Below, piece by piece: positions 45,336 to 63,171 of a DNA stretch of 64,000 nucleotides. The position numbers were made by a program, and so were the translations under genes. Numbering within the stretch: the first letter of the stretch is position 1; every line of letters starts with the position of its first letter. Origin of the DNA: an uncultured Gammaproteobacteria bacterium (GTDB lineage Bacteria > Patescibacteriota > Microgenomatia > Daviesbacterales > UBA10151); contig CAZDFU010000003.1 in NCBI GenBank assembly GCA_964504985.1, positions 822-64,821 on the forward strand, read 5' to 3'. The notes beneath the pieces are model-generated. The model did not search any database and was not told the DNA's origin. It was given only the letters and a program-made list of their open reading frames with translations.

Positions 45336-45596
45336 ATGTTTAGTAATGTCAAGAAAGTGTATACTCCAGAACAAGTAGCAGAAATGCTGCAGCTTAATAA
45401 AGCTACCATTTATGATCTTATTTCCCGGGGCGAGATAATTGCCAAAAGAATCGGTAAGGTCTATAGAATACCTGCCAGTTCTATTTCTTTTGTCTTTACT
45501 GGTTTAGATGCAGACCTTTTGGAAGCCCAAAAAGAAGACCTAAAGAAGCTTTCTGAAATAGAAACGGAAATTTCCAAAGCTAGAGCAAAACTGTAA
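45336..45596 (+). CDS. Excisionase/MerR-like HTH_17 DNA-binding protein (putative antitoxin)
   Basis: YTPEQVAEMLQLNKATIYDLISRGEIIAKRIGKVYRI; stop overlaps PIN gene start (TAATG). Confidence 0.6.
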   Translation: MFSNVKKVYTPEQVAEMLQLNKATIYDLISRGEIIAKRIGKVYRIPASSISFVFTGLDADLLEAQKEDLKKLSEIETEISKARAKL

Positions 45597-46021
45597 TGGC
45601 TCTTAAGGTTTTTATTGACTCTGATGTGGTTATATCATCACTTATTTCTTCTGAGGGAGCAGCATACCTTCTAATTAATAATGTTTTAGACTTAGAACTC
45701 TATATTTCCAACCTATCTTTAAAAGAACTAGAAGTAGTGGCAGAAAGATTAAAGTTAGAGAAAAATCTGCTTACAGAATTGGTAAGCAAAAGGTTCCAAA
45801 AGGTAGATTTAAAAGACTCTAATGAAAAAATAAAACACTTATTTGATGATTATGTCCTGGATATAGATGATGCCCATATAGCTGCTGGAGCAAAGGAGGG
45901 CAAGGTTAGATTTTTAATATCATATAATCTCAGGCATTACAAATTAGATAAAATCAAAAAAGATTTTGGTATTATTGTACTTACTCCTGCTCAGTTCCTG
46001 CAATACTTACGGAGCCTTTAA
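45596..46021 (+). CDS. PIN-domain protein (VapC-like putative toxin)
   Basis: VFIDSDVVIS (first acidic residue), DIDDAHIAAGA, PIN size 141 aa. Confidence 0.55.
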   Translation: MALKVFIDSDVVISSLISSEGAAYLLINNVLDLELYISNLSLKELEVVAERLKLEKNLLTELVSKRFQKVDLKDSNEKIKHLFDDYVLDIDDAHIAAGAKEGKVRFLISYNLRHYKLDKIKKDFGIIVLTPAQFLQYLRSL

Positions 46022-46938: not shown

Positions 46939-47025
46939 ACCTAAAATTAGCCTTAAACACTGTGTTCTTCTAGCCGTTGTCCCTCTCCCCGTCCACCCAC
47001 TTGTGGTGAGATGGGACGGGATAGG

Positions 47026-47108
47026 TGCGGACGAGAGGAGTTGAACCTCCACGCCCTTGCGGGCAATAGGTCCTAAACCTATCGTGTATGCCGTTTCACC
47101 ACGTCCGC
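47026..47108 (-). tRNA. tRNA-Leu (anticodon TAG), class II long variable arm
   Basis: Minus-strand GCGGACGTGGTGAAACGGCATACACGATAGGTTTAGGACCTATTGCCCGCAAGGGCGTGGAGGTTCAACTCCTCTCGTCCGCA. Confidence 0.85.
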
Positions 47109-51103: not shown

Positions 51104-51212
51104 CCCAATTTTAACTAATCAACCTCAGAACTATCCTTAAATTAAATGTAAGTAGGCTTACAAACTTTTTGTAACTTATCTGACAGAAGGTATCAGCCAA
51201 AAAAGGTATCCT

Positions 51213-52880
51213 TTGTGGATGAATAATTATAGGATAGAACAGATTCCTGTCATGGGTAAAGAAGATAAAATTACCTACCTATATTTAGTCCTTGGGGGGA
51301 TGGTTATTACTTCCATTTTTGCAGTCTGGTGGTTTATGCCTTCTCATCTTCCCCATAATTTTAGCGGTGTTTTTCATCTGGTAGATATTATGCTTTTTGT
51401 GATGCTGAGTTTTATTGTCTGGCATCAGATAATTATGGAAGTTTTAGCCTGGTATATCTCTTTAAATATGAAAACTCCCAAACCTACCTTTGCCCCTCCA
51501 GGTTTTAAAGTGGCTTTAATGACTGCTTTTGTGCCTGGAAAAGAATCTTATGAAATACTGACAAAAAGTTTAAGAGCTATGAAAGAGGTAGATTACCCTC
51601 ATGACACCTGGCTTTTGGATGAGGGCAATGATCCCCAAGCCAAACTTATATGTAATTTATTAGGAGTAAAACATTTCTCCAGGTTTGGTATAGAAAAATA
51701 TAACCAACCAGAAGGAAGATTTAAAGCTAAAACCAAAGGTGGAAATTATAATGCCTGGTTTGATATTTATGCCAAACATTATGATATTGTAGCCCAGCAT
51801 GATGTAGATTTTGTGCCTATTAAAGGGTTTTTAACTAAAACTTTAGGATATTTTAAGGATCCTCAGGTGGCTTTTGTAGGATCTCCGCAAATTTATGGTA
51901 ACCAGGAGCAGTCCTGGATTGTAAGAGGCGCAGCTGAACAGGCTTTTAGTTTTTATGGTCCTATTCAAAAAGGCTTATTTGGAGCTGATATGCAGCTTTT
52001 TATTGGTGCCAACCATATTGTTAGGGTTAAAGCACATGATGATATTGGTGGCTACTCCGGGCATATTGTAGAAGATCATTTAACAGGTATGAAGATGTAT
52101 GTTAGAAGGTGGAAAAGTGTTTATGTACCTGAAATACTGGCTGTAGGAGAAGGGCCTGCTAGTTGGGGAGCTTACTTTAGTCAACAAATGAGATGGGCTT
52201 ATGGTTTAATTGATATTTTACTAAGGCATAGCCCTAAGTATTTACCTTTGATGAGGTTTAAACATGCTTTTAATTACTTCATGCTTCAGCAGCACTATTT
52301 TCATGGATTGGCTCAGGGTATTGGTGTAGTACTGATCCTTCTATACTTTTTCTGGGGTATTCAGGCAACTTCAATGGAATTAACAGAGCTGATTTTGTTA
52401 TATATGCCTGTGCTGATTATCCAGATTTTTGTGTTTTATTTTCTGCAGAAATTTTATATATACCCATCTAATGAGGCAGGTTGGTTAGGTAAAAGTAAAT
52501 TGTTAAATTTGGCAGTGTGGCCAATATACCTGGTGGCGTTTCTATCTGTTATTATGAAAAAACCCTTAACTTATAAAGTTACACCAAAAGGCAGCATAGA
52601 AAAAGAAATGCCCTCATTTAAACCTTTTATACCTCATTTTATCTTGGGGACTTTGACTTCTGTGGGTATCGCTGTATCCTTTTTTACCCATTATCAGGCA
52701 CCTCAGATATTCTTTTTTGCTTTCCTAAATTCTGCAGCTATGTACTTTTTTGTTGCAATGGTATTAATACAAAGGCTGCAGGCAATGTATCAGGATAATA
52801 TTTATGCTTTTCTTAAGGGTTTGAAGGAAAGTTGGGGGGTCAGAACACATGCGGATGGTGTTGCTGCTGTTTGGAGATAG
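51213..52880 (+). CDS. Membrane-embedded processive family 2 glycosyltransferase (cellulose-synthase-like)
   Basis: TM helices flanking GT-A domain; DEGND (DxD), QQMRWAYG (QxxRW). Confidence 0.75.
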   Translation: MWMNNYRIEQIPVMGKEDKITYLYLVLGGMVITSIFAVWWFMPSHLPHNFSGVFHLVDIMLFVMLSFIVWHQIIMEVLAWYISLNMKTPKPTFAPPGFKVALMTAFVPGKESYEILTKSLRAMKEVDYPHDTWLLDEGNDPQAKLICNLLGVKHFSRFGIEKYNQPEGRFKAKTKGGNYNAWFDIYAKHYDIVAQHDVDFVPIKGFLTKTLGYFKDPQVAFVGSPQIYGNQEQSWIVRGAAEQAFSFYGPIQKGLFGADMQLFIGANHIVRVKAHDDIGGYSGHIVEDHLTGMKMYVRRWKSVYVPEILAVGEGPASWGAYFSQQMRWAYGLIDILLRHSPKYLPLMRFKHAFNYFMLQQHYFHGLAQGIGVVLILLYFFWGIQATSMELTELILLYMPVLIIQIFVFYFLQKFYIYPSNEAGWLGKSKLLNLAVWPIYLVAFLSVIMKKPLTYKVTPKGSIEKEMPSFKPFIPHFILGTLTSVGIAVSFFTHYQAPQIFFFAFLNSAAMYFFVAMVLIQRLQAMYQDNIYAFLKGLKESWGVRTHADGVAAVWR

Positions 52881-53526
52881 CTGCTTCCTGCTCTAATTTT
52901 TCCAAATTACTGATCACTAAAAACGGGCGTTTGCTGTAAATAATCTTCCCTTTTTCAAACTCTTTTATTATCAAACTGGTAGTTTCCCGGGTTAACCCAG
53001 CCAGGGTGGCAATAATTTGGTGGGTCAAAGGCAAATCAATAACTATTTCACCATTCTCCTGCTTTTTGCCAAAGCGTTTGGCAGCAATTACCAATACTAT
53101 GGCTACTTTGTTATATGAATTGCCAAACATCAAAGACTCCATTACCCCCAGGAGTCCATCTAAACCAATCAGGATTCTTCTGGTTAATTCAAATAGTACT
53201 TCTGGCTCCTGGCGGACAAACTCCACTAAGGCTTCTTTGGGGGCCTTTAAAAGTTCAATTTTTGTCAGGGCTTCAAAATAATAAGTATTTTGGGTTTCTC
53301 CAATAGCCCACATCATGGAAAAATAAGAACCTGGTTTAAAAATATTTAAAGTTAATTCCTGGCCTGTTGCAGAAACAGTATAAAGTCTGGCATAGCCTTC
53401 TTTAAGGTAAAAGACTCCGGGAGGGATATCATCAGCGCGGACAATAATCTCCTTTTTGTTGTAGATCCGTTTGGTATCAAACTTGTTAAAGAAATGCTCG
53501 ATTTTCTCACCAAAGGAATTTTGCAC
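52840..53526 (-). CDS. Crp/Fnr-family transcriptional regulator
   Basis: cNMP-binding-like N-terminus; C-terminal HTH LPLTHQIIATLAGLTRETTSLIIKEFEKGKII. Confidence 0.75.
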   Translation of the reverse strand: MQNSFGEKIEHFFNKFDTKRIYNKKEIIVRADDIPPGVFYLKEGYARLYTVSATGQELTLNIFKPGSYFSMMWAIGETQNTYYFEALTKIELLKAPKEALVEFVRQEPEVLFELTRRILIGLDGLLGVMESLMFGNSYNKVAIVLVIAAKRFGKKQENGEIVIDLPLTHQIIATLAGLTRETTSLIIKEFEKGKIIYSKRPFLVISNLEKLEQEAAISKQQQHHPHVF

Positions 53527-53654
53527 ATGTTAATTTTACCACAAAACAAAAAGTCCTGTTACGCACTATTTGTAATGATTCTTACAGTTTTTCTGCAATA
53601 TATCTGACAGAAGTTTTAGCCCGAAAGGGATATTCTAAACATGTTCTGAAAAAT

Positions 53655-56600
53655 ATGTACAAAGGAAAAATGAAAAAAATATTTCAAAAACTAATATACA
53701 TTTTTGCTGCAGCCTTAATTGTTTTTTACCAGGTTGCGCCTATTGGTTTCTCCCTCAGTACAGTTTTGGCAAAAGATGGCGAGGAAGAAGTTGCTTCTGA
53801 AAATAAAACTGATAACTCAGGTTCCAGTTCAAATGGAGATTCTCAGCCTGAAAGTAATTCATCCGGATCAGGTTCATCTGGGTCTGGTTCATCTGGCAGT
53901 TCTGGGTCTGGCAGCGGATCTTCCGAACCCGCTCCCCAACCTGCAACAACAGAACCTGTACCTGTTGCCACTAATAATGAAGCCGTTCAACAGGAAACTG
54001 CACCAGTAAATATTGTTCAAGAGCAAACCGCACCAGTTAATGCTGTGGAAGTACCGGAAATAATTGCTCCTGTGGTACCTGTAACAAATGAGGTTGAGGA
54101 TGTGAAAAACGGCGGGGTTATTAAAGATGCACCTGGTGATACAGTGAGGCCAACAGATCCAGTGGTAACAACAGAGGCTCAAGCAGGAGCTCTGGCCCCA
54201 GAGACTGCACCGCAAGATCCCATCCCTGCCCAGGCAGACACTTTAGTTGAACCTGTAGAACCCGCCGTAGAAACAGTTACTTCTGCAGTAAACACCATAA
54301 CCGGGCCAGTAGAAACAAGCATTAATACAACATCTGTGAGCAGCCCAACAAGCATTGCTGGTGTAGTTGATCAGGTAAATGGTTTTCCGTCTGCTTATCA
54401 AGACAAATTAGGCATAGCTGTTATCCCCTGCCTTGATGGATCAGACCCTAATTGTGTCTTGCCAGGAGCAGGTGAAGAAGAAGGGTTTGATCCTTCCCAA
54501 CCAACTGCTTTAGGTACTAACTTTCCATCAGAATTTTTCTACTGGATTGCAGAATCTGAACCATTAACTACTCCAAATGGAGGTAAAACTTTTATCAGGA
54601 CAGCTTTAGAAGGAGCCTTCCTGAATGAAGAACCAATCTCAACAGATCAGATGGTCTTTGGCAGAATCAGAGTAACAGGCACAGGTTTAGAACCAAACTC
54701 TACCTACATTGTCACCCATCCTTATGGAATTGATACTTACAAAACAAATGATGTAGGTATTATTGCAAGAGGAGAAGGAACAGAAGATATTGGTTGTGAG
54801 GTCAAGCCTTGTGACTTTACTAAAGCATTAGATAGCAGAATCTTTGATGGGTTCCTACAAATGTCTGAAGGTGCACCAGTTGGTTATCTCGGTGATGCAG
54901 CAACAGCAGCAGAAGTAACAGGAAGTCCTTTAGGCCAAAATTCTTATAGAATTGAAGGCCCAGGTTTACCATTAGGAGGTTTGTTTACCAACCTTTTCAC
55001 TGTAGCAGGTAAATTACTTTCTGGCCTTATTACCCCAATTTCTGTGGAAATCCCAGCTAACCAGCCAGCTCCTGTTAATGAGCAAAATGGAGCGGCGGGT
55101 CCAATTGATGATTCAAATGGGTTTCCTGCATCTTACCAGGATCTTTTGGGTACAACTGTTATCCCCTGCCTTGATGGATCAGACCCTAATTGTGTCTTGC
55201 CAGGAGCAGGTGAAGAAGAAGGGTTTGATCCTTCCCAACCAACTGCTTTAGGTACTAACTTTCCATCAGAATTTTTCTACTGGATTGCAGAATCTGAACC
55301 ATTAACTACTCCAAATGGAGGTAAAACTTTTATCAGGACAGCTTTAGAAGGAGCCTTCCTGAATGAAGAACCAATCTCAACAGATCAGATGGTCTTTGGC
55401 AGAATCAGAGTAACAGGCACAGGTTTAGAACCAAACTCTACCTACATTGTCACCCATCCTTATGGAATTGATACTTACAAAACAAATGATGTAGGTATTA
55501 TTGCAAGAGGAGAAGGAACAGAAGATATTGGTTGTGAGGTCAAGCCTTGTGACTTTACTAAAGCATTAGATAGCAGAATCTTCCAGAGTTTACTGGAATG
55601 GGATGTCCCTCTGCTTAATGGTTATCTGGGTGATGCTATAACTCCACACACTGTTATGGGAAGCCCAACAGGAAACAACTTCTTCAGAATAGAAGGACCA
55701 GGATTGCCTATTGGGGGACTATTAACTAACCTCTTTACAGTAGCAGGAAAATTAGCAGGAGCTATAGGAGGGGTAGTTGATAATATTTTACCAACAGAAG
55801 AGCCTGTTATAGAGGAAGGAACAACTGCTGAGGAAGATATGGTAGAGCCAATTATGGATACAGACCCAGCAGATGAACTTATAGCAGAGGATCTACTTGT
55901 TGGAGGACCTACCGCTGAGGAGGGAACAGGAGAAGACCCAATTAATGAGGCTGAAGATACTCCTGATGCAGAAATTGAAACTCCTGTGGCAACTGAGGAT
56001 ACAGTTAATGAACCCGTGGGGGAGGTAGTAGTTTCCCCTGCTAATGAAGATGAGCAAGAAACAAATGAAGAAGAGCAAGAATCAGAAGAAACAGAAGAAC
56101 CAGAAGCACCAGTTACTGTTATTCCTGGAAATGAAGATGAGGTAGAAGATAATAATGGGACTAATACTGAGGAAGAGGTTATTCAAGAAGAGATTATTCA
56201 AACAGTAGAAACTATCCTTGCAGATCCACTTGACCAGCTTCTTAACACAAACAGCCAGGAAGAAGCATCAGAGCAAGTAACTGCTTTTCTTCAACCAGCT
56301 ATTGTTGAGGCAATAAATAACCAAGCAAACACAACTGAAGATAATACTGTTTTAGCAAGTAATAATTCCTCAGCTGCACAAACAAACAACACCACATCTG
56401 AGTCTGCTGCCAGCTCAAATAATAATTCCAGCTCAGTATCAAATAATACTAGCAGTCAATCATCAAGCTCAGATAATAACCAATCATCTGGTTCAACTAA
56501 CCAGTCATCTGGCGGGATTGAGGCAGGACAAAAAACTAGTGCAGAGGAGGCAAAAACTGGAGAAGAAAATAAAACTCAGGTATTGTCAGTACAAATTTCC

Positions 56601-56789
56601 CAAACCGCAGAAGATAACTCATCTGAGATTTTTGAACAAGCTGAACAGCCTGAGCAACCAGAACAATCAGATTCAAGTGAAGTAACCTCAGAAGAAAAAG
56701 AAGCAGGGAAAAATCCTATAGGCATAGTTTTAGCTCTAACCGGCTTAGCTATCGCAGGAGGGTTTTTCTCCAGACGCTTTATTGTCTAA
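53655..56789 (+). CDS. Large secreted/surface protein (1044 aa) with S/G-rich and acidic low-complexity regions, internally duplicated 142-aa module, C-terminal hydrophobic anchor
   Basis: N-terminal signal/TM. SGSGSSGSGSSG linker. Two identical copies of VIPCLDGSDPNCVLPGAGEEEGFDPSQ...CEVKPCDFTKALDSRIF. C-terminal LALTGLAIAGGFFSRRFIV. Confidence 0.7.
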   Translation: MYKGKMKKIFQKLIYIFAAALIVFYQVAPIGFSLSTVLAKDGEEEVASENKTDNSGSSSNGDSQPESNSSGSGSSGSGSSGSSGSGSGSSEPAPQPATTEPVPVATNNEAVQQETAPVNIVQEQTAPVNAVEVPEIIAPVVPVTNEVEDVKNGGVIKDAPGDTVRPTDPVVTTEAQAGALAPETAPQDPIPAQADTLVEPVEPAVETVTSAVNTITGPVETSINTTSVSSPTSIAGVVDQVNGFPSAYQDKLGIAVIPCLDGSDPNCVLPGAGEEEGFDPSQPTALGTNFPSEFFYWIAESEPLTTPNGGKTFIRTALEGAFLNEEPISTDQMVFGRIRVTGTGLEPNSTYIVTHPYGIDTYKTNDVGIIARGEGTEDIGCEVKPCDFTKALDSRIFDGFLQMSEGAPVGYLGDAATAAEVTGSPLGQNSYRIEGPGLPLGGLFTNLFTVAGKLLSGLITPISVEIPANQPAPVNEQNGAAGPIDDSNGFPASYQDLLGTTVIPCLDGSDPNCVLPGAGEEEGFDPSQPTALGTNFPSEFFYWIAESEPLTTPNGGKTFIRTALEGAFLNEEPISTDQMVFGRIRVTGTGLEPNSTYIVTHPYGIDTYKTNDVGIIARGEGTEDIGCEVKPCDFTKALDSRIFQSLLEWDVPLLNGYLGDAITPHTVMGSPTGNNFFRIEGPGLPIGGLLTNLFTVAGKLAGAIGGVVDNILPTEEPVIEEGTTAEEDMVEPIMDTDPADELIAEDLLVGGPTAEEGTGEDPINEAEDTPDAEIETPVATEDTVNEPVGEVVVSPANEDEQETNEEEQESEETEEPEAPVTVIPGNEDEVEDNNGTNTEEEVIQEEIIQTVETILADPLDQLLNTNSQEEASEQVTAFLQPAIVEAINNQANTTEDNTVLASNNSSAAQTNNTTSESAASSNNNSSSVSNNTSSQSSSSDNNQSSGSTNQSSGGIEAGQKTSAEEAKTGEENKTQVLSVQISQTAEDNSSEIFEQAEQPEQPEQSDSSEVTSEEKEAGKNPIGIVLALTGLAIAGGFFSRRFIV
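54418..55582 (+). repeat. Perfect 427-bp direct tandem duplication (units 54418-54844 and 55156-55582, period 738 bp) within the surface-protein gene
   Basis: Line-by-line identical DNA between the two units. Confidence 0.85.
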
Positions 56790-56815
56790 GCAATAAGAAA
56801 GTAGATTGGTCTTTA

Positions 56816-56848
56816 AAAACTCCTCCCGGGAAACGGGGGAGTTTTTTT
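56816..56848 (+). terminator. Rho-independent terminator after surface-protein gene
   Basis: aaaaactcctcccgg-gaaa-cgggggag followed by ttttttt. Confidence 0.75.
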
Positions 56849-56942
56849 GGTTAAATATTAGTTTTTCCCAATGGTAATCTGCTGGGAATTTTGAATAGTT
56901 ATGTTTTGTGAGGTTTAAAATTAAGAAGCCTTTAGGTATAAT

Positions 56943-57026
56943 TAACAAATCAGCCGGGATGCTGGAATCGGTAGACAGGCTACCTTGAGGTGGTAGTGCC
57001 CGCAAGGGCGTGGAGGTTCAAGTCCT
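56943..57026 (+). tRNA. tRNA-Leu (anticodon GAG), class II
   Basis: GCCGGGATGCTGGAATCGGTAGACAGGCTACCTTGAGGTGGTAGTGCCCGCAAGGGCGTGGAGGTTCAAGTCCTCTTCCCGGCA. Confidence 0.85.
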
Positions 57027-58544
57027 CTTCCCGGCACACGAGCCGACCAAGTCGGTTTCAAATTGACGAATAGATTGATATATCGGGCTAATGTGGGTGT
57101 TGTCTAAGCTCTTATAGTCCCAAACCAGTCCGGAAGGGCTTATTGAACACATAAGCACACGAATCTGGCTAAGAGTAGACATTTGATAAGTTTGAGGAAG
57201 ATTTGCAAACTTCTCTTTCATAAACTTCACAATTGATTCAAGGTTATATTTTGCGAGGAGTGCATCATCTTTGGTAACTTGAACAGCAGCAATTTGATCT
57301 TCAATTAGCTTATTCTGTTCTTTGAAGATTTCATCCGAAAATACCCCACTTAAATTCTTCTGAATAAGTGCTTGGCGCATTTCATAGAGTCTTTTTAGCT
57401 CACTATCTGCTTGCTCTTTTCTTTTTTGGAGTTGGGATACTCTTTGATAATAAATTCGTCTTAAAAGAGCTATAAAAGCATCCAGTGCTTGTTTGGTAGG
57501 AGTAATAGTGGATAAGAATTGTAAAGCAGCATTATTGAGCTTGTAAGCCTGTATTGAAGGCATTTTACAGCCATGCTGACATCGGTAATAAGCATATCTA
57601 GCTTTTTTTCCTTTACTCCATCCGCCAGTTAAGGGTTGTTTACATATTCCACATATAACCAGCCTTCGTAGAGGGAATTCAGTATTGTCTTTATTTCTTC
57701 TTGCCACAGGAACATGGAGATTGGTATTTCTGCCGTCTATTACCGCTTGTACGCGATAAAACATCTCTTCAGTAACCATCGCCACATGTTGTCCTCTAAC
57801 TTCCTCCGGATACCGTGTAGAAGTTAGTATGCCGATATAATATTTGTTTCTAAACATCACACTCAGAGCTTGTTTCCTGATTATGTTTTCCTTGCCTTTA
57901 TATCTTTGGGTTACACCCCATTCATTCATCAACTCTGCCATTTCCTGAAGAGTTTTGGTACCAGTTGCCATTAATTTCCAAGCCTCAACAACTTTATCCC
58001 AAGTTTTTGTATCTTTGACTATATAGCCACTTTCACTTTTATAGCCAAGTGGTGGTGTGCCACTGGTAAGTCCAGCTAAAAACCTAGCTCTTAGTCCATT
58101 TTTAGTACGTTCGCTTCTGATATCATTATCCATCTGAGCAAAACTGGCAAGCATAGTTTCTACAAACTTTTCTGTGGCACTGTTTCCAGTAGGTTCAGAA
58201 GTAGATAAAAGTGCTATCTGGTATTCAGTAAGCTTTTTCTTAATTGCCAAAAAGTCTCCAACCTGACGTGAAAGTCTATCTAATCGGTAAACAATCAACG
58301 CATCAATATTTTTCTTATTTCTCCTGCAAAACTCCATCATCTCAATAAGTACAGGTCTGCCAGTGATATTTTTGGCTGATCGGCCTTCTTCTTTGAAGAC
58401 TTGGATAATCTCAAGCCCTTTACGTTCTGCTTCTTGAGCACAGATTCTCTCCTGAGTTTCCAAAGAGAAGTTATCTACTTGTTCTTCTGTTGAAACTCGA
58501 AGATAAACAATTGCTTTTCTAGATTCTGATTTAATTAATGCCAT
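57018..58544 (-). CDS. Large serine recombinase (phage-type serine integrase)
   Basis: N-terminal resolvase domain AIVYLRVSTEEQ (catalytic Ser). Recombinase domain. Zinc ribbon CGICKQPL...YYRCQHGC. Coiled-coil C-terminus. Confidence 0.8.
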   Translation of the reverse strand: MALIKSESRKAIVYLRVSTEEQVDNFSLETQERICAQEAERKGLEIIQVFKEEGRSAKNITGRPVLIEMMEFCRRNKKNIDALIVYRLDRLSRQVGDFLAIKKKLTEYQIALLSTSEPTGNSATEKFVETMLASFAQMDNDIRSERTKNGLRARFLAGLTSGTPPLGYKSESGYIVKDTKTWDKVVEAWKLMATGTKTLQEMAELMNEWGVTQRYKGKENIIRKQALSVMFRNKYYIGILTSTRYPEEVRGQHVAMVTEEMFYRVQAVIDGRNTNLHVPVARRNKDNTEFPLRRLVICGICKQPLTGGWSKGKKARYAYYRCQHGCKMPSIQAYKLNNAALQFLSTITPTKQALDAFIALLRRIYYQRVSQLQKRKEQADSELKRLYEMRQALIQKNLSGVFSDEIFKEQNKLIEDQIAAVQVTKDDALLAKYNLESIVKFMKEKFANLPQTYQMSTLSQIRVLMCSISPSGLVWDYKSLDNTHISPIYQSIRQFETDLVGSCAGKRT

Positions 58545-58546
58545 AT

Positions 58547-58882
58547 TTATCCTTCATGCAAAACTTCTTTTAATGTCATGCCACCAAATACATCTCTTTC
58601 AAACTCATCAAGCCAGTTATTAGCTAAAAATTGAAACTCTGCGACTACACATTCAATTTGCTCATCAGATAATGTGTTAGCAGTTTCACCAAGTATTCTT
58701 CTGGTTTTGAGAATACTTGCTTCTTCTGTTTGGGTTGGAAGAATAGAGTTAAGAGCACTTTCTAGCGAGGCAAGAGGATTAGTATTAATAGGCTCTGGAG
58801 AGACAATATTAGAATTAACTGTAGGAGTAGTTTGAAATCTAGTTTCGAGTGTAGGATAAAGTGGTAATCGTTGTGGTTCCAT
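58547..58882 (-). CDS. Hypothetical protein (111 aa) upstream of integrase
   Basis: ORF 3 nt upstream of integrase start; possible recombination directionality factor (speculative). Confidence 0.35.
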   Translation of the reverse strand: MEPQRLPLYPTLETRFQTTPTVNSNIVSPEPINTNPLASLESALNSILPTQTEEASILKTRRILGETANTLSDEQIECVVAEFQFLANNWLDEFERDVFGGMTLKEVLHEG

Positions 58883-59407
58883 AGTGTGTTCAATAGGTCT
58901 TCTTGAGTACAGTATATATCTCGATCGAGATAGTTGTCAAGAGGCAATTTAAGTAGAAAAAAGTCCCTACGCGTGGGGACAAAATGTGTAAACGCGTTTA
59001 TACATTTTTAAGGCTATTTTGAGCCTAATTCTTCAAAAAACACAGACTCTTTATACTTATATAAATATAAGGGGGTGTAATATAATCTAAAACAAAGATG
59101 TATAACCCTAACCTCTACCCAAGTTCCAATCCTCTGCTCAACCTATTAACTATTAACCTATCTAACATGAAAACATTACCACCAATTACTAAAACCCAAA
59201 AACAAATAATCTTATTTCTCTATAAATTCCGCTTTTCTACAGTAACCCCACTACAAAAACTTTCAAAGATTTCTCGCTTTTTTTTAACTACTCAAGATGC
59301 TATTAAATTTAGTAACGGGAAAACAAATCAATTGTCTTAATACACATTATGCCTATTCATAATTCAAATCATATCTCAGTGCTTAGAATCTTTGATATAC
59401 TTCTAGC

Positions 59408-59894
59408 ATGAGTAATATTGAAATAACAACTCTTTCATCTGAAAATTGGGAAGAATACAAAAATCTTAGGTTAACGGCTCTTAAAGAAAATCCAGAGGCT
59501 TTCGGTTTATTGTATGAAGAAGCTAAAGAATACTCTAAAGATAAATGGTTAGACCCTCTTGTAGAAGCAGAAAATGAGGAAAAATAAATGGATACTTTTT
59601 GCAAAGTTAAATGGAAAACTAGTTGGAATGATTAGTGGAAGTGTAATAGATGGAGATACTGTTAAATTAGGTGAGGTATTTGTTGCTACGGAGGCAAGAG
59701 GTATGGCTCTCGGAAAGAAACTTCTGGAAACTTTAATCAGTAAAATCACTAAATACCCTGAATTAAAAAAAGCTAAAGCAAAAGTGTTTACAACTCAAAA
59801 AGCAGCGTTAATCTATATGAAAGCTTTGGTTTTGAAACATCGGAGACAATTACAGAACACTGGCCAGATGGAAGAACTCATGAAACGTTTATAA
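59408..59894 (+). pseudogene. GNAT-family N-acetyltransferase interrupted by frameshift in an A-run
   Basis: Frame A 59408-59587 (MSNIEITTLSSENWEEY...EAENEEK*) and frame B 59574-59894 (…LFAKLNGKLVGMISGSV…VATEARGMALGKKLLE…) join at gaggaaaaataaa. Confidence 0.55.
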
Positions 59895-60037
59895 TGTATA
59901 AATCTTTACAATAGAGAGGAAAATCAAATATTTGGCAGAAGATAGAGTAATTTTAAAAATTAGCAATTACTTAAACCTTTTCTATTTATGGTAAATTTTG
60001 CCCATGACTCATTCTGCTTATCTTCCCTTCTAAGTAA

Positions 60038-62122
60038 TTAGATTTTTTTATAATATTCTTCAACTCTTTTTGCTATTTCAGTTAAAGGTAAGCCATTCTC
60101 TTTCCCATGTGTTTCTAATTCAGGATCAGTTGGTTCAAATATCCATGATTGAAAGCCTATCATGCCGGGATTATTTTGCGTGTTTTGGCCTTTATCGTCA
60201 ATAATCGGTACATCAAAAAGTTTTTTGAAAATGGGAGCAATTCGTTTACCTGAGGCGATATCAAAAGGTTCAAAATCATCATCATTAAATTCCCTCTCAT
60301 GTTCCAAACTATAATCTACAAAATCAGCTACAACTTGCGCAATAATATCTTCTTTTTGCTTATAATCATGTTCACCTCCTGCGATAAGGTAATTTTGCTG
60401 TGCCATTAAAACAATGTCATCCTGCCATAAACCAAAATCAGTTAGATATTTCTGTATGCGATCTCTTGCAGTTGCATCTGTACAGATAACAACAGTACCT
60501 ACTTTACGTAACCTATCTAGAAGCTCTTTCGCTTCAGGATTTGGAACTTTCGGCCCATCGTTGTTTATAAGAACATTATTTAGATCAACCACAATAGGTT
60601 TAGGAATTGTGCGTAATAACTCTAAGGCTTTTTTATCCCAAGCAAAGCCCCTCTTTTCAAAATAACCATTCAATTCAGCGATAGTACCTTTCAAGTTCTC
60701 CTGCTCTGAAGCTTCTTGTTGAGATTCAGCAGGTTTCTCTAAATAAGCCCTAGCAAGTAGCCCGTCTGATACGACACGGAGCGCAGTATCCTTACCGCCC
60801 TCTGTTACTGCCTTCCGTATTCGATCGATATCAGATTCTCTAAAAGAGGCCATGCCAATATGCTGATTTATGATTTCGTATAATTCTGGTCTCGCATTCC
60901 ATAGCATGTCCGCGTGTGCAGAATTAGGCATGATAGCTGAATGAGTAAGTTGAACATCGGACCCCTCTATAAAAGCACCTAAAAAATTTTCTGGAGGATG
61001 AGCATCCTTGGTCAGTACCCCAAGGTATATACCAACTGTTCTTTCGGGGGTTTGTGGAACAAGAGTGATTGGTTCTCTTCTATAAAGGGCGTTTTGGTGT
61101 CCATAAGATGTCTTATGCCAGGTCTGGAAAGTTTCATCATGTTTTGTAAAAAAACGAACTTTCCTTGTAGCATCAAAAACACCGTTAACGATGGCCGATT
61201 GAGCGAGTAGTTCTGGAGCAGTGTTTGTCTCCCGCTCTTCTTGATCTATAGTTGTTGGTATTTTACTCGATATTTGTTTCGGTGAAGGACGTACCTGTAC
61301 TAGATTATAGAAGCTAGGAATGTTCGGGTCAAAGATCAGCTCTAATTGAACACCAAAATCAATCCCTGTTTTTTTAATAGCAGCAAATAAATCAACAACA
61401 AAGGGATTTGCTGCCAAGTCGTTATATCCGAGAAGAGATTTATGAAAGCTTCTGGTGGGAATAATTGGTTCGCCAGTTTCTGCATCCCAAGCTCCTACAC
61501 CAGCTTCCGCATCCTCTGTAGCGGATGTAAACGCTCTCCCGCGCTCATTGCCAGAAGCTACTCTGGCAACCACCTTTCCTTCTAATGAACTATAACCGAT
61601 GTCTATTACTAAGCCTATCCCTTTAAGTGCATTCTGCACAACAAATGGTATTTCTGGTAATTCGCTACGTTTTTGCGCATCTTCAAACTTTCTTCGTGTG
61701 TCGTAATCAGTTAAGTTAAAGCTTCTAAATGTACCACTTTGACCATCAAGCCAATCTTCAGTAAGAGAAGAGCTGCGAAACATTGCGTTAGGATGAGCGG
61801 CAGGATGGACAGATTTAACATCTTTGACTATAGACCACCCGGGCACATCAAGCCCTACACCTGACGAAGATCGTCGAAAATTTTCACTAATCATCTTGCA
61901 AACTACTAACCCAAAAGCTTTCCCCCCTCCGTTGCGTAACGTATTTTCAAGACCTTCTTTAGTGTGTGGATATCGGGCAAGTCGAGTAGTAAAAGCATCG
62001 AGGTTTGCTTGCGTATACTGCCATCTATCCAAAGCAAACTCTGGCTTTTCTGAGTTTTCTGATTCGTGCCTGACAGCGTATTGCTCTGGTGTGGTTGCTG
62101 GTTGTGGTTCATTCATACTCAA
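60038..62122 (-). CDS. PEP-utilising-enzyme N-terminal (PPDK/PEP-synthase ATP-grasp)-like domain fused to C-terminal HAD-like domain (694 aa)
   Basis: GGGKAFGL, VPGWSIV, MFRSSSLTEDWLDGQSGTFRSFNL (cf. RSSATAEDLP..SFAGQ..T). C-terminal IVVDLNNVLI...VVICTDA...K(x)nDFVD HAD-like arrangement with degenerate motif I. Confidence 0.5.
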   Translation of the reverse strand: MSMNEPQPATTPEQYAVRHESENSEKPEFALDRWQYTQANLDAFTTRLARYPHTKEGLENTLRNGGGKAFGLVVCKMISENFRRSSSGVGLDVPGWSIVKDVKSVHPAAHPNAMFRSSSLTEDWLDGQSGTFRSFNLTDYDTRRKFEDAQKRSELPEIPFVVQNALKGIGLVIDIGYSSLEGKVVARVASGNERGRAFTSATEDAEAGVGAWDAETGEPIIPTRSFHKSLLGYNDLAANPFVVDLFAAIKKTGIDFGVQLELIFDPNIPSFYNLVQVRPSPKQISSKIPTTIDQEERETNTAPELLAQSAIVNGVFDATRKVRFFTKHDETFQTWHKTSYGHQNALYRREPITLVPQTPERTVGIYLGVLTKDAHPPENFLGAFIEGSDVQLTHSAIMPNSAHADMLWNARPELYEIINQHIGMASFRESDIDRIRKAVTEGGKDTALRVVSDGLLARAYLEKPAESQQEASEQENLKGTIAELNGYFEKRGFAWDKKALELLRTIPKPIVVDLNNVLINNDGPKVPNPEAKELLDRLRKVGTVVICTDATARDRIQKYLTDFGLWQDDIVLMAQQNYLIAGGEHDYKQKEDIIAQVVADFVDYSLEHEREFNDDDFEPFDIASGKRIAPIFKKLFDVPIIDDKGQNTQNNPGMIGFQSWIFEPTDPELETHGKENGLPLTEIAKRVEEYYKKI

Positions 62123-62304
62123 TACACCTTTAATGATTATACAACACAGTTATAGGTTCTGCAGGAGTAGAGCTTCGGTTTTTTCAAGATATACGCAGTC
62201 CTTGCTATTCCTGATAATAAAAATGATGTTTATAGTATTCCCTCACAACTTCATATATAATTCACATAGAAACTCAACAGGTGAAGTTTAGAGAAGAAAG
62301 GTCC

Positions 62305-62550
62305 TTAGTTTTTGGATCTGTTATTTAAGACTTCTGTGGCTACTTTTTGCATTTCAGTTACCAAAGATTCAATATATTCTTGGTTATTTATCTTTTCTGG
62401 TGTATATTTTGCAACATTTTCTTTAACAATTTCCGTAGTTTTGATGCGATCTGAAACTACTGCATGTAAAGTCTCGCTGTTTAACGATTCACATAATTCT
62501 TTGCAGAATTGATAGTTCGGGTTTGATTGCAAATCATCTGGTACACTCAT
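62305..62550 (-). CDS. Hypothetical small protein (81 aa), divergent from XRE regulator
   Basis: ORF; Cro-like position. Confidence 0.35.
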   Translation of the reverse strand: MSVPDDLQSNPNYQFCKELCESLNSETLHAVVSDRIKTTEIVKENVAKYTPEKINNQEYIESLVTEMQKVATEVLNNRSKN

Positions 62551-62575
62551 GAGGCAATTCTAGCAAAGTCAGACT

Positions 62576-62806
62576 GTGAGCGCAAACTATCTCGATAAGA
62601 TGTATAATATAGATGTTATGGGTTTCAAAGAAGATAACGCTAAGAAATTTAAAAAAGCTCGGGAGGATCAGAGTCTTACTCAAGCTCAAGTTGCTAAAAG
62701 GGCAAAAATAAGCACCAATTACTACGCACGAATTGAGAGAGCTGATCCTGAAGCCAGAGGGAATGTTTTAGATAGAATTGCGAAGGCTCTAGGGGTAAAG
62801 CTATAA
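62576..62806 (+). CDS. XRE-family helix-turn-helix transcriptional regulator
   Basis: LTQAQVAKRAKISTNYYARIERA (Cro/C1 HTH). Confidence 0.7.
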   Translation: MSANYLDKMYNIDVMGFKEDNAKKFKKAREDQSLTQAQVAKRAKISTNYYARIERADPEARGNVLDRIAKALGVKL

Positions 62807-63013
62807 AACTTTCTTTCATCTGAATTTTTTAATATAATACGATTTGGAATAACGAATGCCCTCGGGTGAGTAGTTTTCGCTTTCTGTCTCCTCTTGCTCT
62901 GGGTAAGCAAGCATGATTTTATAAATCCAAGGCAGAAAGTGTTCAAAAGAAAGTCGCTCAGGGGCACTTAAATTCTATGGACGGTTAGCTCAGGAAGAGC
63001 GCTTCGCTCTGAT

Positions 63014-63086
63014 GGAGTCGTAGCTCAGTTGGTAGAGCGTCTGATTTACATTCAGAAGGTCACAGGTTCGAGACCTGTCGGCTCCA
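63014..63086 (+). tRNA. tRNA-Val (anticodon TAC)
   Basis: GGAGTCGTAGCTCAGTTGGTAGAGCGTCTGATTTACATTCAGAAGGTCACAGGTTCGAGACCTGTCGGCTCCA. Confidence 0.85.
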
Positions 63087-63171
63087 CATTCGAAGATGGC
63101 GGGGGTTCAAATCCCTCAGTACCCACTTGATTCCAGTGGCACTGCCCTGTGATATACTAAATCTTACTTTT

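Follow-up and report, generated by a model that had tools for sequence, protein, structure and literature searches.

A 64,000-nt stretch of contig CAZDFU010000003.1 (the window; positions without a locus name are counted along it) carries, between its genes for tRNA-Leu(GAG) and tRNA-Val(TAC), a segment that is very probably an integrated mobile element. Positions 57038-62967, 5,928 bp in all, would be a stripped-down member of a Patescibacteria-wide family of serine-integrase elements, most of which carry conjugation genes. This assignment is built on boundaries mapped to the nucleotide (57038/40 to 62965/67), on an empty site in relatives, on the register in which the family meets tRNA genes, on domain content and on the decay of the element's own genes. 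A wider proposal is made only tentatively: that throughout the phylum this integrase family mimics the hexamer of the tRNA T-loop in both arms of its attachment site attP, crosses over at the CCA position and has an open reading frame (ORF) spanning the crossover, and that it bounds Patescibacteria conjugation clusters, so that part of the 'relaxase-less' type IV secretion systems (T4SSs) would be true integrative and conjugative elements (ICEs).

Where exactly does the element begin and end? The near end, attL, was placed by anchoring 70 tRNA-adjacent integrase junctions on the discriminator base of the tRNA, which gives an ungapped alignment. Position +1 is an invariant C in the 70 loci; +2/+3 vary (mostly CA; AC in the window; CT in L002, the L numbers denoting relatives fetched for comparison; also AA, TA, TG, AG, CG and TC); +4 to +11 read [AG][AG]nGnGA[CT]; TCAAA stands at +22 to +26; and +33-47 is CGAATAGATTGATATA, coding for the conserved YQSIR of the integrase tail. 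From this pattern +2/+3 are read as the crossover, the tRNA as the B arm of the host and +4 onward as the P' arm of the element. In the window attL is then ..cctcttcccggcAc(57037)/AC(57038-39)/gagccgacc, with slashes enclosing the crossover dinucleotide, or in short form ...cccggcAc/AC/gagccgac.

The far end, attR, was placed with two relatives. L167 has an 81%-identical integrase on a 9.6-kb element which interrupts an ABC1 kinase gene, with no tRNA and with both ends visible. In tRNA-like orientation these ends read ..tttagcgcAc/CG/gaggagcgc.. and ..gtgcatcaggggc/CG/tggacttgccc.. (in short form ..gcgcAc/CG/gaggagcgc and ..atcaggggc/CG/tggacttg), and rejoining the flanks restores the ABC1 motif FGQVH..A-K-LEDGTVVIIKVLRPG, save for a discrepancy of 1 nt in the frame. 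Window 62912-62965 is homologous to the arm at the far end of the L167 element. In L088, positions 1721-1776 match window 62912-62967 with 96% identity over 56 nt, and the similarity ends directly after AC. Based on the L167 far arm and on this end of the L088 similarity, attR is placed at 62966-67, as ..aaagaaagtcgctcaggggc(62965)/AC(62966-67)/ttaaattctat, or in short form ...gtcgctcaggggc/AC/ttaaattc. The dinucleotides match at both ends of an element, AC and AC in the window, CG and CG in L167. Rebuilding attB brings tRNA-Leu(GAG) to 15 nt upstream of ggacggttagctcag, a tRNA-Val 5' end, and both this layout and the Val acceptor are those of the empty site in L092. The junctions predicted after excision are ...aaagaaagtcgctcaggggcACgagccgaccaagtcggtttc... 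for attP and ...cctcttcccggcacACttaaattctatggacgg... for attB.

The P arms of the window, L088, L167, L009, L030, L052, L067, L074, L079 (two copies) and L083 share ..[GC][CG]ACTTTCTTT[TC]GAAC.., and TTYGAAC is found in 11 P arms. The window element has what defines the family: the C(+1) register, a 111-aa ORF upstream of the integrase and the P-arm motif ACTTTCTTTYGAAC, here with two mismatches. A direct-repeat search over the window and 60 related loci found no second copy of the tRNA-Leu 3' end, and a similarity scan with each B arm showed the P arm to be no more like a whole tRNA 3' end than it is like shuffled queries. A 25-nt repeat in L067, considered as a tRNA duplicate, proved to be a P'-like flank beside its P arm. 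Other placements of the far end were also tried. Crossovers at AG, CA or GG, derived from the local palindrome GCTC-AC-GAGC, are ruled out by the ends of L167 and L088, and so is the reading of 'gggcact' (62962-68) as an old tRNA-Val acceptor strand (compare agggcacttta after Leu(GAG) in L093), as caggggc/ac is the element end in both relatives. The first-pass annotation of this DNA had drawn a ~6-kb integrative element at tRNA-Leu(GAG) between 56943 and 63130, and had pointed to 57026 and 62990-63130 for the attachment cores; the element holds, its limits move inwards, and the cores do exist, at 57038-39 and 62966-67. Base composition, another suggested check, does not mark it, with a GC content of 0.373 inside the element and 0.373 outside.

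The host locus itself argues for an insertion. Relatives were retrieved via the glmS N-terminus and are the closest available, at 65-76% amino-acid identity. Among them (L087-L093) the order Leu(CAG)-Leu(GAG)-Val(TAC)-glmS, then tRNA-Phe/Gly/Gln, is conserved. The gap from Leu(GAG) to Val(TAC) is ~6.0 kb in the window; it is 18 nt in L092 and 58 nt in L093, both with glmS downstream, 334 nt in L091, 1.2 kb in L088, 1.5 kb in L089 and 7.5 kb in L087, and what lies in the gap of L087, L088, L089 and L091 has no relation to the window insert. The short spacing in L092 and L093, together with the unrelated inserts of the other relatives, leads us to read the 6 kb of the window as an insertion and the interval as a hot spot. 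An empty site, with tRNA-Leu directly followed by tRNA-Val and glmS, was what the first-pass annotation had proposed to look for, and L092 and L093 provide it. The tRNA-Leu(GAG) gene reads as host DNA throughout, no part of it being supplied by the element.

The enzyme responsible would be the large serine integrase at the near end. Its matches to PF00239 (E 2.8e-31), PF07508 (E 8e-8) and PF13408 (E 1.4e-7), the latter two above the gathering score, cover the domains of this class, and the catalytic serine S18 (in YLRVSTEEQ), R16 and the zinc-ribbon residues C298/C301/C322 are invariant in an alignment of 31 homologues. The stop codon (tca on the plus strand, 57018-57020) falls inside the T-loop of tRNA-Leu(GAG), in antisense. 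Thus both the early call of a large serine integrase ending in the tRNA-Leu 3' end and the check on its catalytic serine are borne out; by its sequence and att sites the enzyme qualifies as a large serine integrase, with recombination activity predicted.

This integrase has a large family behind it. There are 928 homologues at E<=1e-10; the best 120 share 58-89% identity, and the named sources are Patescibacteria. Their C-termini carry peptides such as ..GAxxxxRT or ..GDPxGNRTP, which are the antisense of a tRNA acceptor strand and T-loop. Eighty integrase loci were fetched from species-representative genomes, with hosts among the Roizman-, Shapiro-, Levy-, Davies-, Woese-, Gottesman-, Curtiss- and Berkelbacteria, WWE3, Saccharibacteria and CPR2. 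In 70 loci (68 of the 80 fetched, plus L002 and the window) the integrase meets a convergent tRNA gene, the two 3' ends abutting or overlapping; the targets are five Leu isoacceptors and tRNAs for Phe, Glu, Pro, Gly, Ser, Asp, Arg, Lys, Ala, Gln and Met. A tmRNA gene takes the place of the tRNA in L045, in the same register. Loci without a tRNA or tmRNA junction stop at a contig edge or occupy pseudo-sites. Two integrases, 81-82% identical, are found at the ABC1 kinase gene (L167, 1570-12654) and at an unassigned non-tRNA site (L169, 6317-6440); both sites end ..GCAc/CG, which indicates the use of secondary sites. Neither element has tRNA sequence on its own side, and host coding DNA lies beyond the crossover. 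The inner B-arm bases GCAC (G71, C72, discriminator and C74) recur at these places, as ..gcgcAc in L167 and ..ggtgcAc in L169.

Another relative shows how the module may travel. L002 has an 89%-identical integrase, located at tRNA-Leu(TAG), and occupancy is reciprocal: the window's tRNA-Leu(TAG) (47024-47108, minus strand) is empty, and so is tRNA-Leu(GAG) in L002. The empty Leu(TAG) site of the window reads ..cgtccgcAc/CT/atcccg, with the same CT as in the elements at Leu(TAG) in L002 and L168. The integrase and 111-aa module (58950-56994) is 84% identical to that of L002 at the DNA level, compared with 66-74% for shared backbone genes, and the similarity of the two inserts ends at 58950. The difference in identity and the reciprocal occupancy indicate that the module is mobile, and the former suggests that it moved recently.

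What happens to an ORF that runs through its own crossover? Translation of the rebuilt attP gives an excised form of 504 aa ending ..ETDLVGSCP*; it stops at the TGA of a conserved ccccTGA that belongs to the P arm. When integrated, the protein has 508 aa and ends ..ETDLVGSCAGKRT (...GSCAGKRT), with the last six codons, CAGKRT, and the stop taken from antisense tRNA DNA. L167 gives a parallel, ..SSGP* when excised and ..SSGALN* when integrated. Given these computed ends, the tRNA-derived tail seen family-wide is best taken as a by-product of reading across attL.

In the proposed mechanism, the integrase would have recombined the attP of the element with an attB in which the final ~25 bp of tRNA-Leu(GAG) form the B arm, AC the crossover and the short spacer before tRNA-Val the B' arm. 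The crossover would lie 2-3 nt past the discriminator, at the normal position of CCA and just outside the mature tRNA, which explains why the tRNA is intact and fully host-encoded and nothing is duplicated. How would one enzyme find so many tRNA genes? TT[TC]GAA corresponds to the T-loop sequence GTTCRAA on one strand or the other, and in the window such hexamers stand 19-24 bp from the crossover in the P arm (T-loop-like GTTCAAA, TTTGAA on the other strand), 18-23 bp in the P' arm (TTCAAA) and 16-21 bp in the B arm (T-loop GTTCRA). The zinc-ribbon domain, we propose, would read a TTYGAA/TTCAAA hexamer at attP-type or attB-type spacing. In the 2013 structure of the LI integrase from Rutherford and colleagues, the outer motif is said to lie further from the centre in attP than in attB half-sites. 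T-loop recognition of this kind would explain how the family lands on any tRNA or tmRNA gene, as the T-loop would be the hexamer at attB spacing.

Several observations weigh against this picture. The P and P' arms are only loosely symmetric, their motifs being offset by 1 nt, and in other loci the distance from P-arm hexamer to crossover is 18-20 bp, depending on where the crossover is placed. The P' TTCAAA doubles as the codons of a conserved Phe-Glu in the integrase tail, and the protein may be what keeps it conserved. The dinucleotide of the L009 P arm differs from that of its attL, and rejoining the ABC1 gene of L167 leaves a frame error of 1 nt. No recombination directionality factor was identified. 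Neither an excised circle nor a restored attB of the same organism was found (an exact look-up of the integrase led to a 1.9-kb contig only), and the rebuilt attP pattern is absent from viral contigs. Finally, the cargo at 59272-62911 has no relatives in other elements bar the XRE gene, and part of it was maybe captured later.

Could the element be a tRNA island of the classical type, with the crossover inside the tRNA, a tRNA 3' end supplied by the element and displaced pieces near tRNA-Val marking the far end? The integrase ORF does overlap the tRNA 3' end, tRNA-like fragments do flank tRNA-Val, and this would be the usual pattern for tyrosine integrases (Islander, PMC4383910). The fragments, however, are of Val type and not of Leu type, and a second copy of the Leu 3' end is missing from the window. 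The host coding DNA beyond the crossover in L167 and L169 implies an element without a tRNA piece, the acceptor strands co-vary with the host's own 5' strand across the 70 loci, and the P arm resembles L088 and L167 only up to a point 12 nt short of the first Val fragment. This origin is therefore highly improbable, and the idea of an element-supplied tRNA 3' end has to be given up: the integrase ORF just reads across attL into the host tRNA. An improbable reading too, though less so, is that of a composite island in which only 57038-~59271 is a serine-integrase remnant, while the GNAT, 694-aa, 81-aa and XRE genes came in an unrelated insertion, older or later, with a non-cognate end at 62965. 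It draws on the cargo from 59272 onward, which lacks homologues in 80+ related elements except for XRE, on the abrupt stop of Replic_Relax homology at 59271, on the lower GC content at 58883-60037 (0.318) and on the record of the Leu-Val interval as a hot spot with unrelated inserts in L087, L088, L089 and L091. Against it, the 54 nt at 62912-62965 are the P arm of the family and end at the same AC as attL, and the XRE gene lies 105 nt inside this arm in the orientation typical of the family. With both ends belonging to one element, replacement of internal genes fits the serine-integrase element described here and calls for no separate insertion at the level of the chromosome.

Is the element still alive? 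A fixed, dead remnant, in which excision is lost and the integrase is kept for other reasons or has not yet decayed, is the rival to be taken most seriously, and we regard it as rather unlikely. Pseudogenes, the loss of all transfer genes, a GC content equal to that of the host and the lack of a circular or empty form found from the same organism agree with it. On the other side, the integrase is full length with all family-invariant residues kept, its 111-aa partner and the XRE gene are intact, attL and attR share a dinucleotide and have conserved arms, and the 84% identity of the module to L002, set against 66-74% for the backbone, suggests recent movement. The serine-integrase element may thus still be excisable and yet unable to transfer alone, given that its Replic_Relax gene is a stump and that coupling-protein and T4SS genes are absent; present-day activity is something we infer from sequence.

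Features of the element and its flanks (window positions; a dot marks features without strand)
Feature	Position	Strand	Remarks
tRNA-Leu(GAG)	56953..57037	+	End 57036/37; ARAGORN, Rfam 49 bits
B arm			Last ~25 bp of tRNA-Leu(GAG): T arm, acceptor strand, discriminator A57036, C57037; 70-locus alignment
Large serine integrase	57018..58544	-	508 aa integrated; Resolvase, Recombinase, Zn_ribbon_recom (Pfam)
attL crossover dinucleotide AC	57038..57039	.	+2/+3 after discriminator; variable columns; AC also at attR
P' arm (gagccgaccaagtcggtttcaaattgacgaat...)	57040..57075	.	Overlaps last integrase codons; outer limit inferred
111-aa ORF ('C1')	58547..58882	-	Immediately upstream of integrase, same orientation
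80-codon ORF	59098-59340		
Replic_Relax (PF13814) stump	59167..59271	+	First 31-35 codons; tblastn with 255-aa family
GNAT acetyltransferase pseudogene	59408..59894	+	ORFs 59408-59587 and 59574-59894; frameshift near 59574-59587
694-aa orphan cargo protein	60038..62122	-	ATP-grasp-like N-terminal ~460 aa
81-aa ORF	62305..62550	-	Divergent from XRE gene; sub-threshold DUF2750 match only
XRE-family helix-turn-helix regulator	62576..62806	+	HTH_3 E 2e-12
P arm (..aaggcagaaagtgttcaaaagaaagtcgctcaggggc)	62912..62965	.	L088 and L167 homology
attR crossover dinucleotide AC	62966..62967	.	Identical to attL dinucleotide
Host B' flank	62968..63006	+	11-nt spacer ttaaattctat, then old tRNA-Val 5' half; outside element
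Old tRNA-Val 5' half	62979..63006	+	Acceptor ggacggt, D arm, anticodon-stem strand cttcg
tRNA-Val(TAC), intact, L087-like allele	63014..63086/87	+	ARAGORN, Rfam 73 bits; outside element
Old tRNA-Val 3' half	63091..63125	+	cgaag, variable loop, T arm, acceptor agtaccc, discriminator

The genes between the two ends are partly typical of the family and partly private. The 111-aa ORF, listed already in the first-pass annotation and present as described, recurs in 78 related loci, where its distance to the start of the integrase gene runs from -4 to +53 nt. None of the 60 homologues of its product has a Pfam domain; an AlphaFold2 (AF2) model (pLDDT 71) shows a disordered N-terminus and a four-helix C-terminal domain, for which a fold search returned no match. 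We consider this protein a candidate cofactor of the integrase. The Replic_Relax stump matches the N-terminal residues of its family only, with up to 81% identity (E 3e-11). The early claim of a frameshifted GNAT gene is confirmed: once the two ORFs are joined, the Pfam match extends over profile positions 5-108 of 116, so the frameshift is real. The 694-aa protein has no Pfam match itself, none of its 23 homologues has a Pfam domain and an exact-sequence look-up gave no match; its AF2 model (pTM 0.67) is confident at residues ~25-460, with pLDDT <60 in the C-terminal third, and Foldseek relates it to ATP-grasp ligases and rifampin phosphotransferase (E~1e-5). Of the PPDK-N/HAD-like fusion suggested for it, the PPDK-N-like part is roughly right as a fold, through these ATP-grasp matches. 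A divergent Cro/cI-like pair had also been proposed, and only half of it finds support. Its XRE member belongs to a cluster (C4) known from 16 related loci, in each case facing the other way from the integrase, and stands 105 nt inside the P arm; the 81-aa ORF has no relatives in the fetched loci, and the same holds for GNAT and the 694-aa protein among the elements there.

Other observations concern the attachment sites of relatives. In L088 (1721-1800) the P-arm copy and AC run into catagagaactttt, a sequence similar to what comes after tRNA-Leu(GAG) in L002, and the copy adjoins GatD/MurT genes, where tRNA-Leu(TAG) would be expected; this arrangement suggests a rearrangement between element copies. 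L079 has two P-arm copies 4.8 kb apart (1689 and 6530), with the same ~30-nt left flank and upstream of one integrase, and they may represent a tandem pair of elements, one without an integrase. A P' hairpin just after the tRNA end is common in the 70 loci (window 57046-57058, ccgac-caa-gtcgg), with a mean z of -1.0 against shuffles. A covariation test in fixed register gave a weak signal, 60.6% paired compared with 56.3% after shuffling, and a control slid by -3 is equally good, so a conserved hairpin is not claimed; it could be a terminator for tRNA read-through or a part of the att site.

The tRNA-like fragments on either side of tRNA-Val, quoted in the first-pass annotation as scars of integration, exist (62983-63002 and 63098-63126) but are not scars of this element: they are Val-derived and not Leu-derived in an alignment with the tRNA-Val of relatives (A5), and they lie outside attR. 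The old 5' half has an acceptor as in L092 and L091, a shortened D loop and a cttcg strand as in L093, and the old 3' half is near-identical to that of the L093 tRNA-Val. Between them, in place of the 7-nt anticodon loop, stand ctctgat (7 nt), the intact tRNA-Val(TAC) and catt (4 nt). The anticodon-stem strands of the two halves are complementary; the acceptor strands are poorly so (4/7). As they sit to the right of attR, starting inside the host B' flank, the fragments predate the element or are independent of it. Intact and partial tRNAs are also arranged side by side in L089 and L091, with a partial tRNA-Val after the intact one in L089. Possible origins are an element targeting the anticodon loop, since deleted, or deletions in a former array of Val alleles.

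The whole cluster Leu(CAG)-Leu(GAG)-Val(TAC)-glmS is a hot spot, rebuilt repeatedly in the history of this genome. A second island of 5.8 kb (51108-56952), without an integrase, separates tRNA-Leu(CAG) from tRNA-Leu(GAG), which in relatives are 8-750 nt apart. It encodes a GT2 glycosyltransferase (51213-52880), a Crp/Fnr-type regulator (52840-53526, minus strand) and a Ser/Glu-rich surface protein of 1044 aa (53655-56789), which contains a large internal duplication and for which an exact-sequence look-up gave no match. Remnants at this cluster also occur in L087 (1-347), L089 (7540-7640 and 9088-9150) and L091 (9560-9610). In L087 a C-terminal integrase stump lies upstream of Leu(GAG), and in L089 and L091 displaced 3' fragments of tRNA-Leu(GAG) stand beside the intact gene, the L091 fragment adjoining a GIY-YIG ORF. 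Next to the empty tRNA-Leu(TAG) of the window, just upstream, is the gene of a PIN-domain protein (45596-46021), then a 299-aa ORF without a Pfam match. On the other side of the cluster, L093 has a glmS ribozyme (RF00234, 67 bits; 1174-1384) between tRNA-Val and glmS; the corresponding gap is 85 nt in the window (63087-63171) and 31 nt in L087, both without a ribozyme. This lineage seems to have lost the control of glmS by a ribozyme, and the presence of the ribozyme in L093 but not in the window or L087 indicates that the Val-glmS region was rebuilt in further ways.

What kind of element is the family made of? ORFs within 10 kb upstream of the integrases were clustered and Pfam was run on representatives. 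A ~870-aa coupling protein (TrwB_AAD_bind, TraG-D_C) and a ~255-aa Replic_Relax protein occur in 63 loci; DUF2958, an ArdC-like protein and a reverse transcriptase are other usual members, and about a dozen loci have a VirB4-like ATPase, a TrbL/VirB6-pilin protein, an M23 peptidase and small membrane proteins. In many loci of the range L004-L084, genes for the coupling protein, VirB4-like ATPase, TrbL/VirB6-pilin, M23 and Replic_Relax proteins lie between the integrase and the far end. Collections of viral sequences (2.9 million contigs) hold one close relative of the integrase only, which also abuts a tRNA, and on this ground the elements are not recognisable phages; judged by gene content, the family is one of ICE-like elements. 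The window copy contains no T4SS genes (VirB4, coupling protein), which its relatives do contain; for a relaxase or oriT it offers only the stump of 31-35 codons, no oriT search having been made. Pfam detects no capsid, terminase or tail genes in it. It has no tyrosine recombinase, its sole recombinase being of the serine type, and no displaced tRNA 3' segment was found at the distal end in the window or in related loci. By these features the window element is neither a tyrosine-integrase tRNA island nor a self-transmissible ICE nor a prophage.

Tyrosine integrases classically insert at tRNA genes, and serine integrases are known mainly from sites inside protein-coding genes. The family described here shares with phiC31, Bxb1, A118/LI integrase, TP901-1 and SCCmec Ccr the same domain set, short att sites, a 2-bp crossover and the lack of long direct repeats, and its outer-motif spacing (18-24 bp in attP, 16-21 bp in attB) is consistent with the pattern reported for LI integrase. 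Unlike phiC31-type integrases, it targets the 3' ends of many tRNA and tmRNA genes instead of a single protein-coding gene, its ORF crosses the crossover so that the last codons change on integration, a conserved 111-aa ORF is coupled to it upstream and the hosts are Patescibacteria. A conserved family (58-89% identity) landing at the CCA ends of tRNA and tmRNA genes, with no tRNA copy of its own, would be a different solution to the same problem. SSV-type integrases of archaea are tyrosine recombinases with attP inside their gene, which is split in two by integration into a tRNA. They share the att site within the ORF and the tRNA target, whereas the window integrase exchanges its last 1-5 codons only and leaves the enzyme intact.

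In the Islander paper (PMC4383910), integration into tRNA and tmRNA genes is attributed to tyrosine integrases. Islander and P4-like islands use the same side of the tRNA, with a convergent adjacent integrase and a tRNA that stays functional; the window element differs in its serine-type enzyme, in a crossover 2 bp outside the mature tRNA and in having no element-borne or displaced tRNA segment. Closer in appearance are the tycheposons of Prochlorococcus, of which 27 out of 937 have a large serine recombinase instead of a tyrosine recombinase (bioRxiv 10.1101/2020.12.28.424599). They too are small, modular, tRNA-adjacent elements of streamlined genomes, but most combine a tyrosine recombinase with partial tRNA repeats, phylum and gene content differ, and no evidence of a crossover at the CCA position or of a T-loop-like attP arm was found in the text of the preprint. 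No description of this integrase family was found in the literature searched, whose coverage was incomplete, and an earlier description elsewhere is possible.

For Patescibacteria, a 2025 study of T4SSs (PMC12102498), which concludes that relaxases are missing from most clusters, says nothing of integrases or tRNA, and the same is true of a 2025 study of gene exchange in the group. Compared with monoderm-type conjugative elements (ICEs) and the clusters of the former study, full-size relatives of the window element carry the coupling protein (TrwB/TraG), VirB4-like, TrbL/VirB6 and pilin, M23, Replic_Relax, DUF2958 and ArdC-like genes, and the window copy keeps the Replic_Relax stump only. At least some Patescibacteria T4SS clusters thus appear to lie inside integrase-bounded elements, an arrangement not considered in PMC12102498. 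By tying coupling-protein and VirB4 clusters to such elements, the family bears on the question raised there of whether these T4SSs conjugate DNA. The window copy is a decayed, small member, and the interest lies in the family-level rule that it exposes, proposed here as a T-loop hexamer read at attB-type or attP-type spacing, which is testable. The rule could be relevant to genome engineering, where serine integrases are in demand as tools, as all domains of life share a conserved T-loop and acceptor end.

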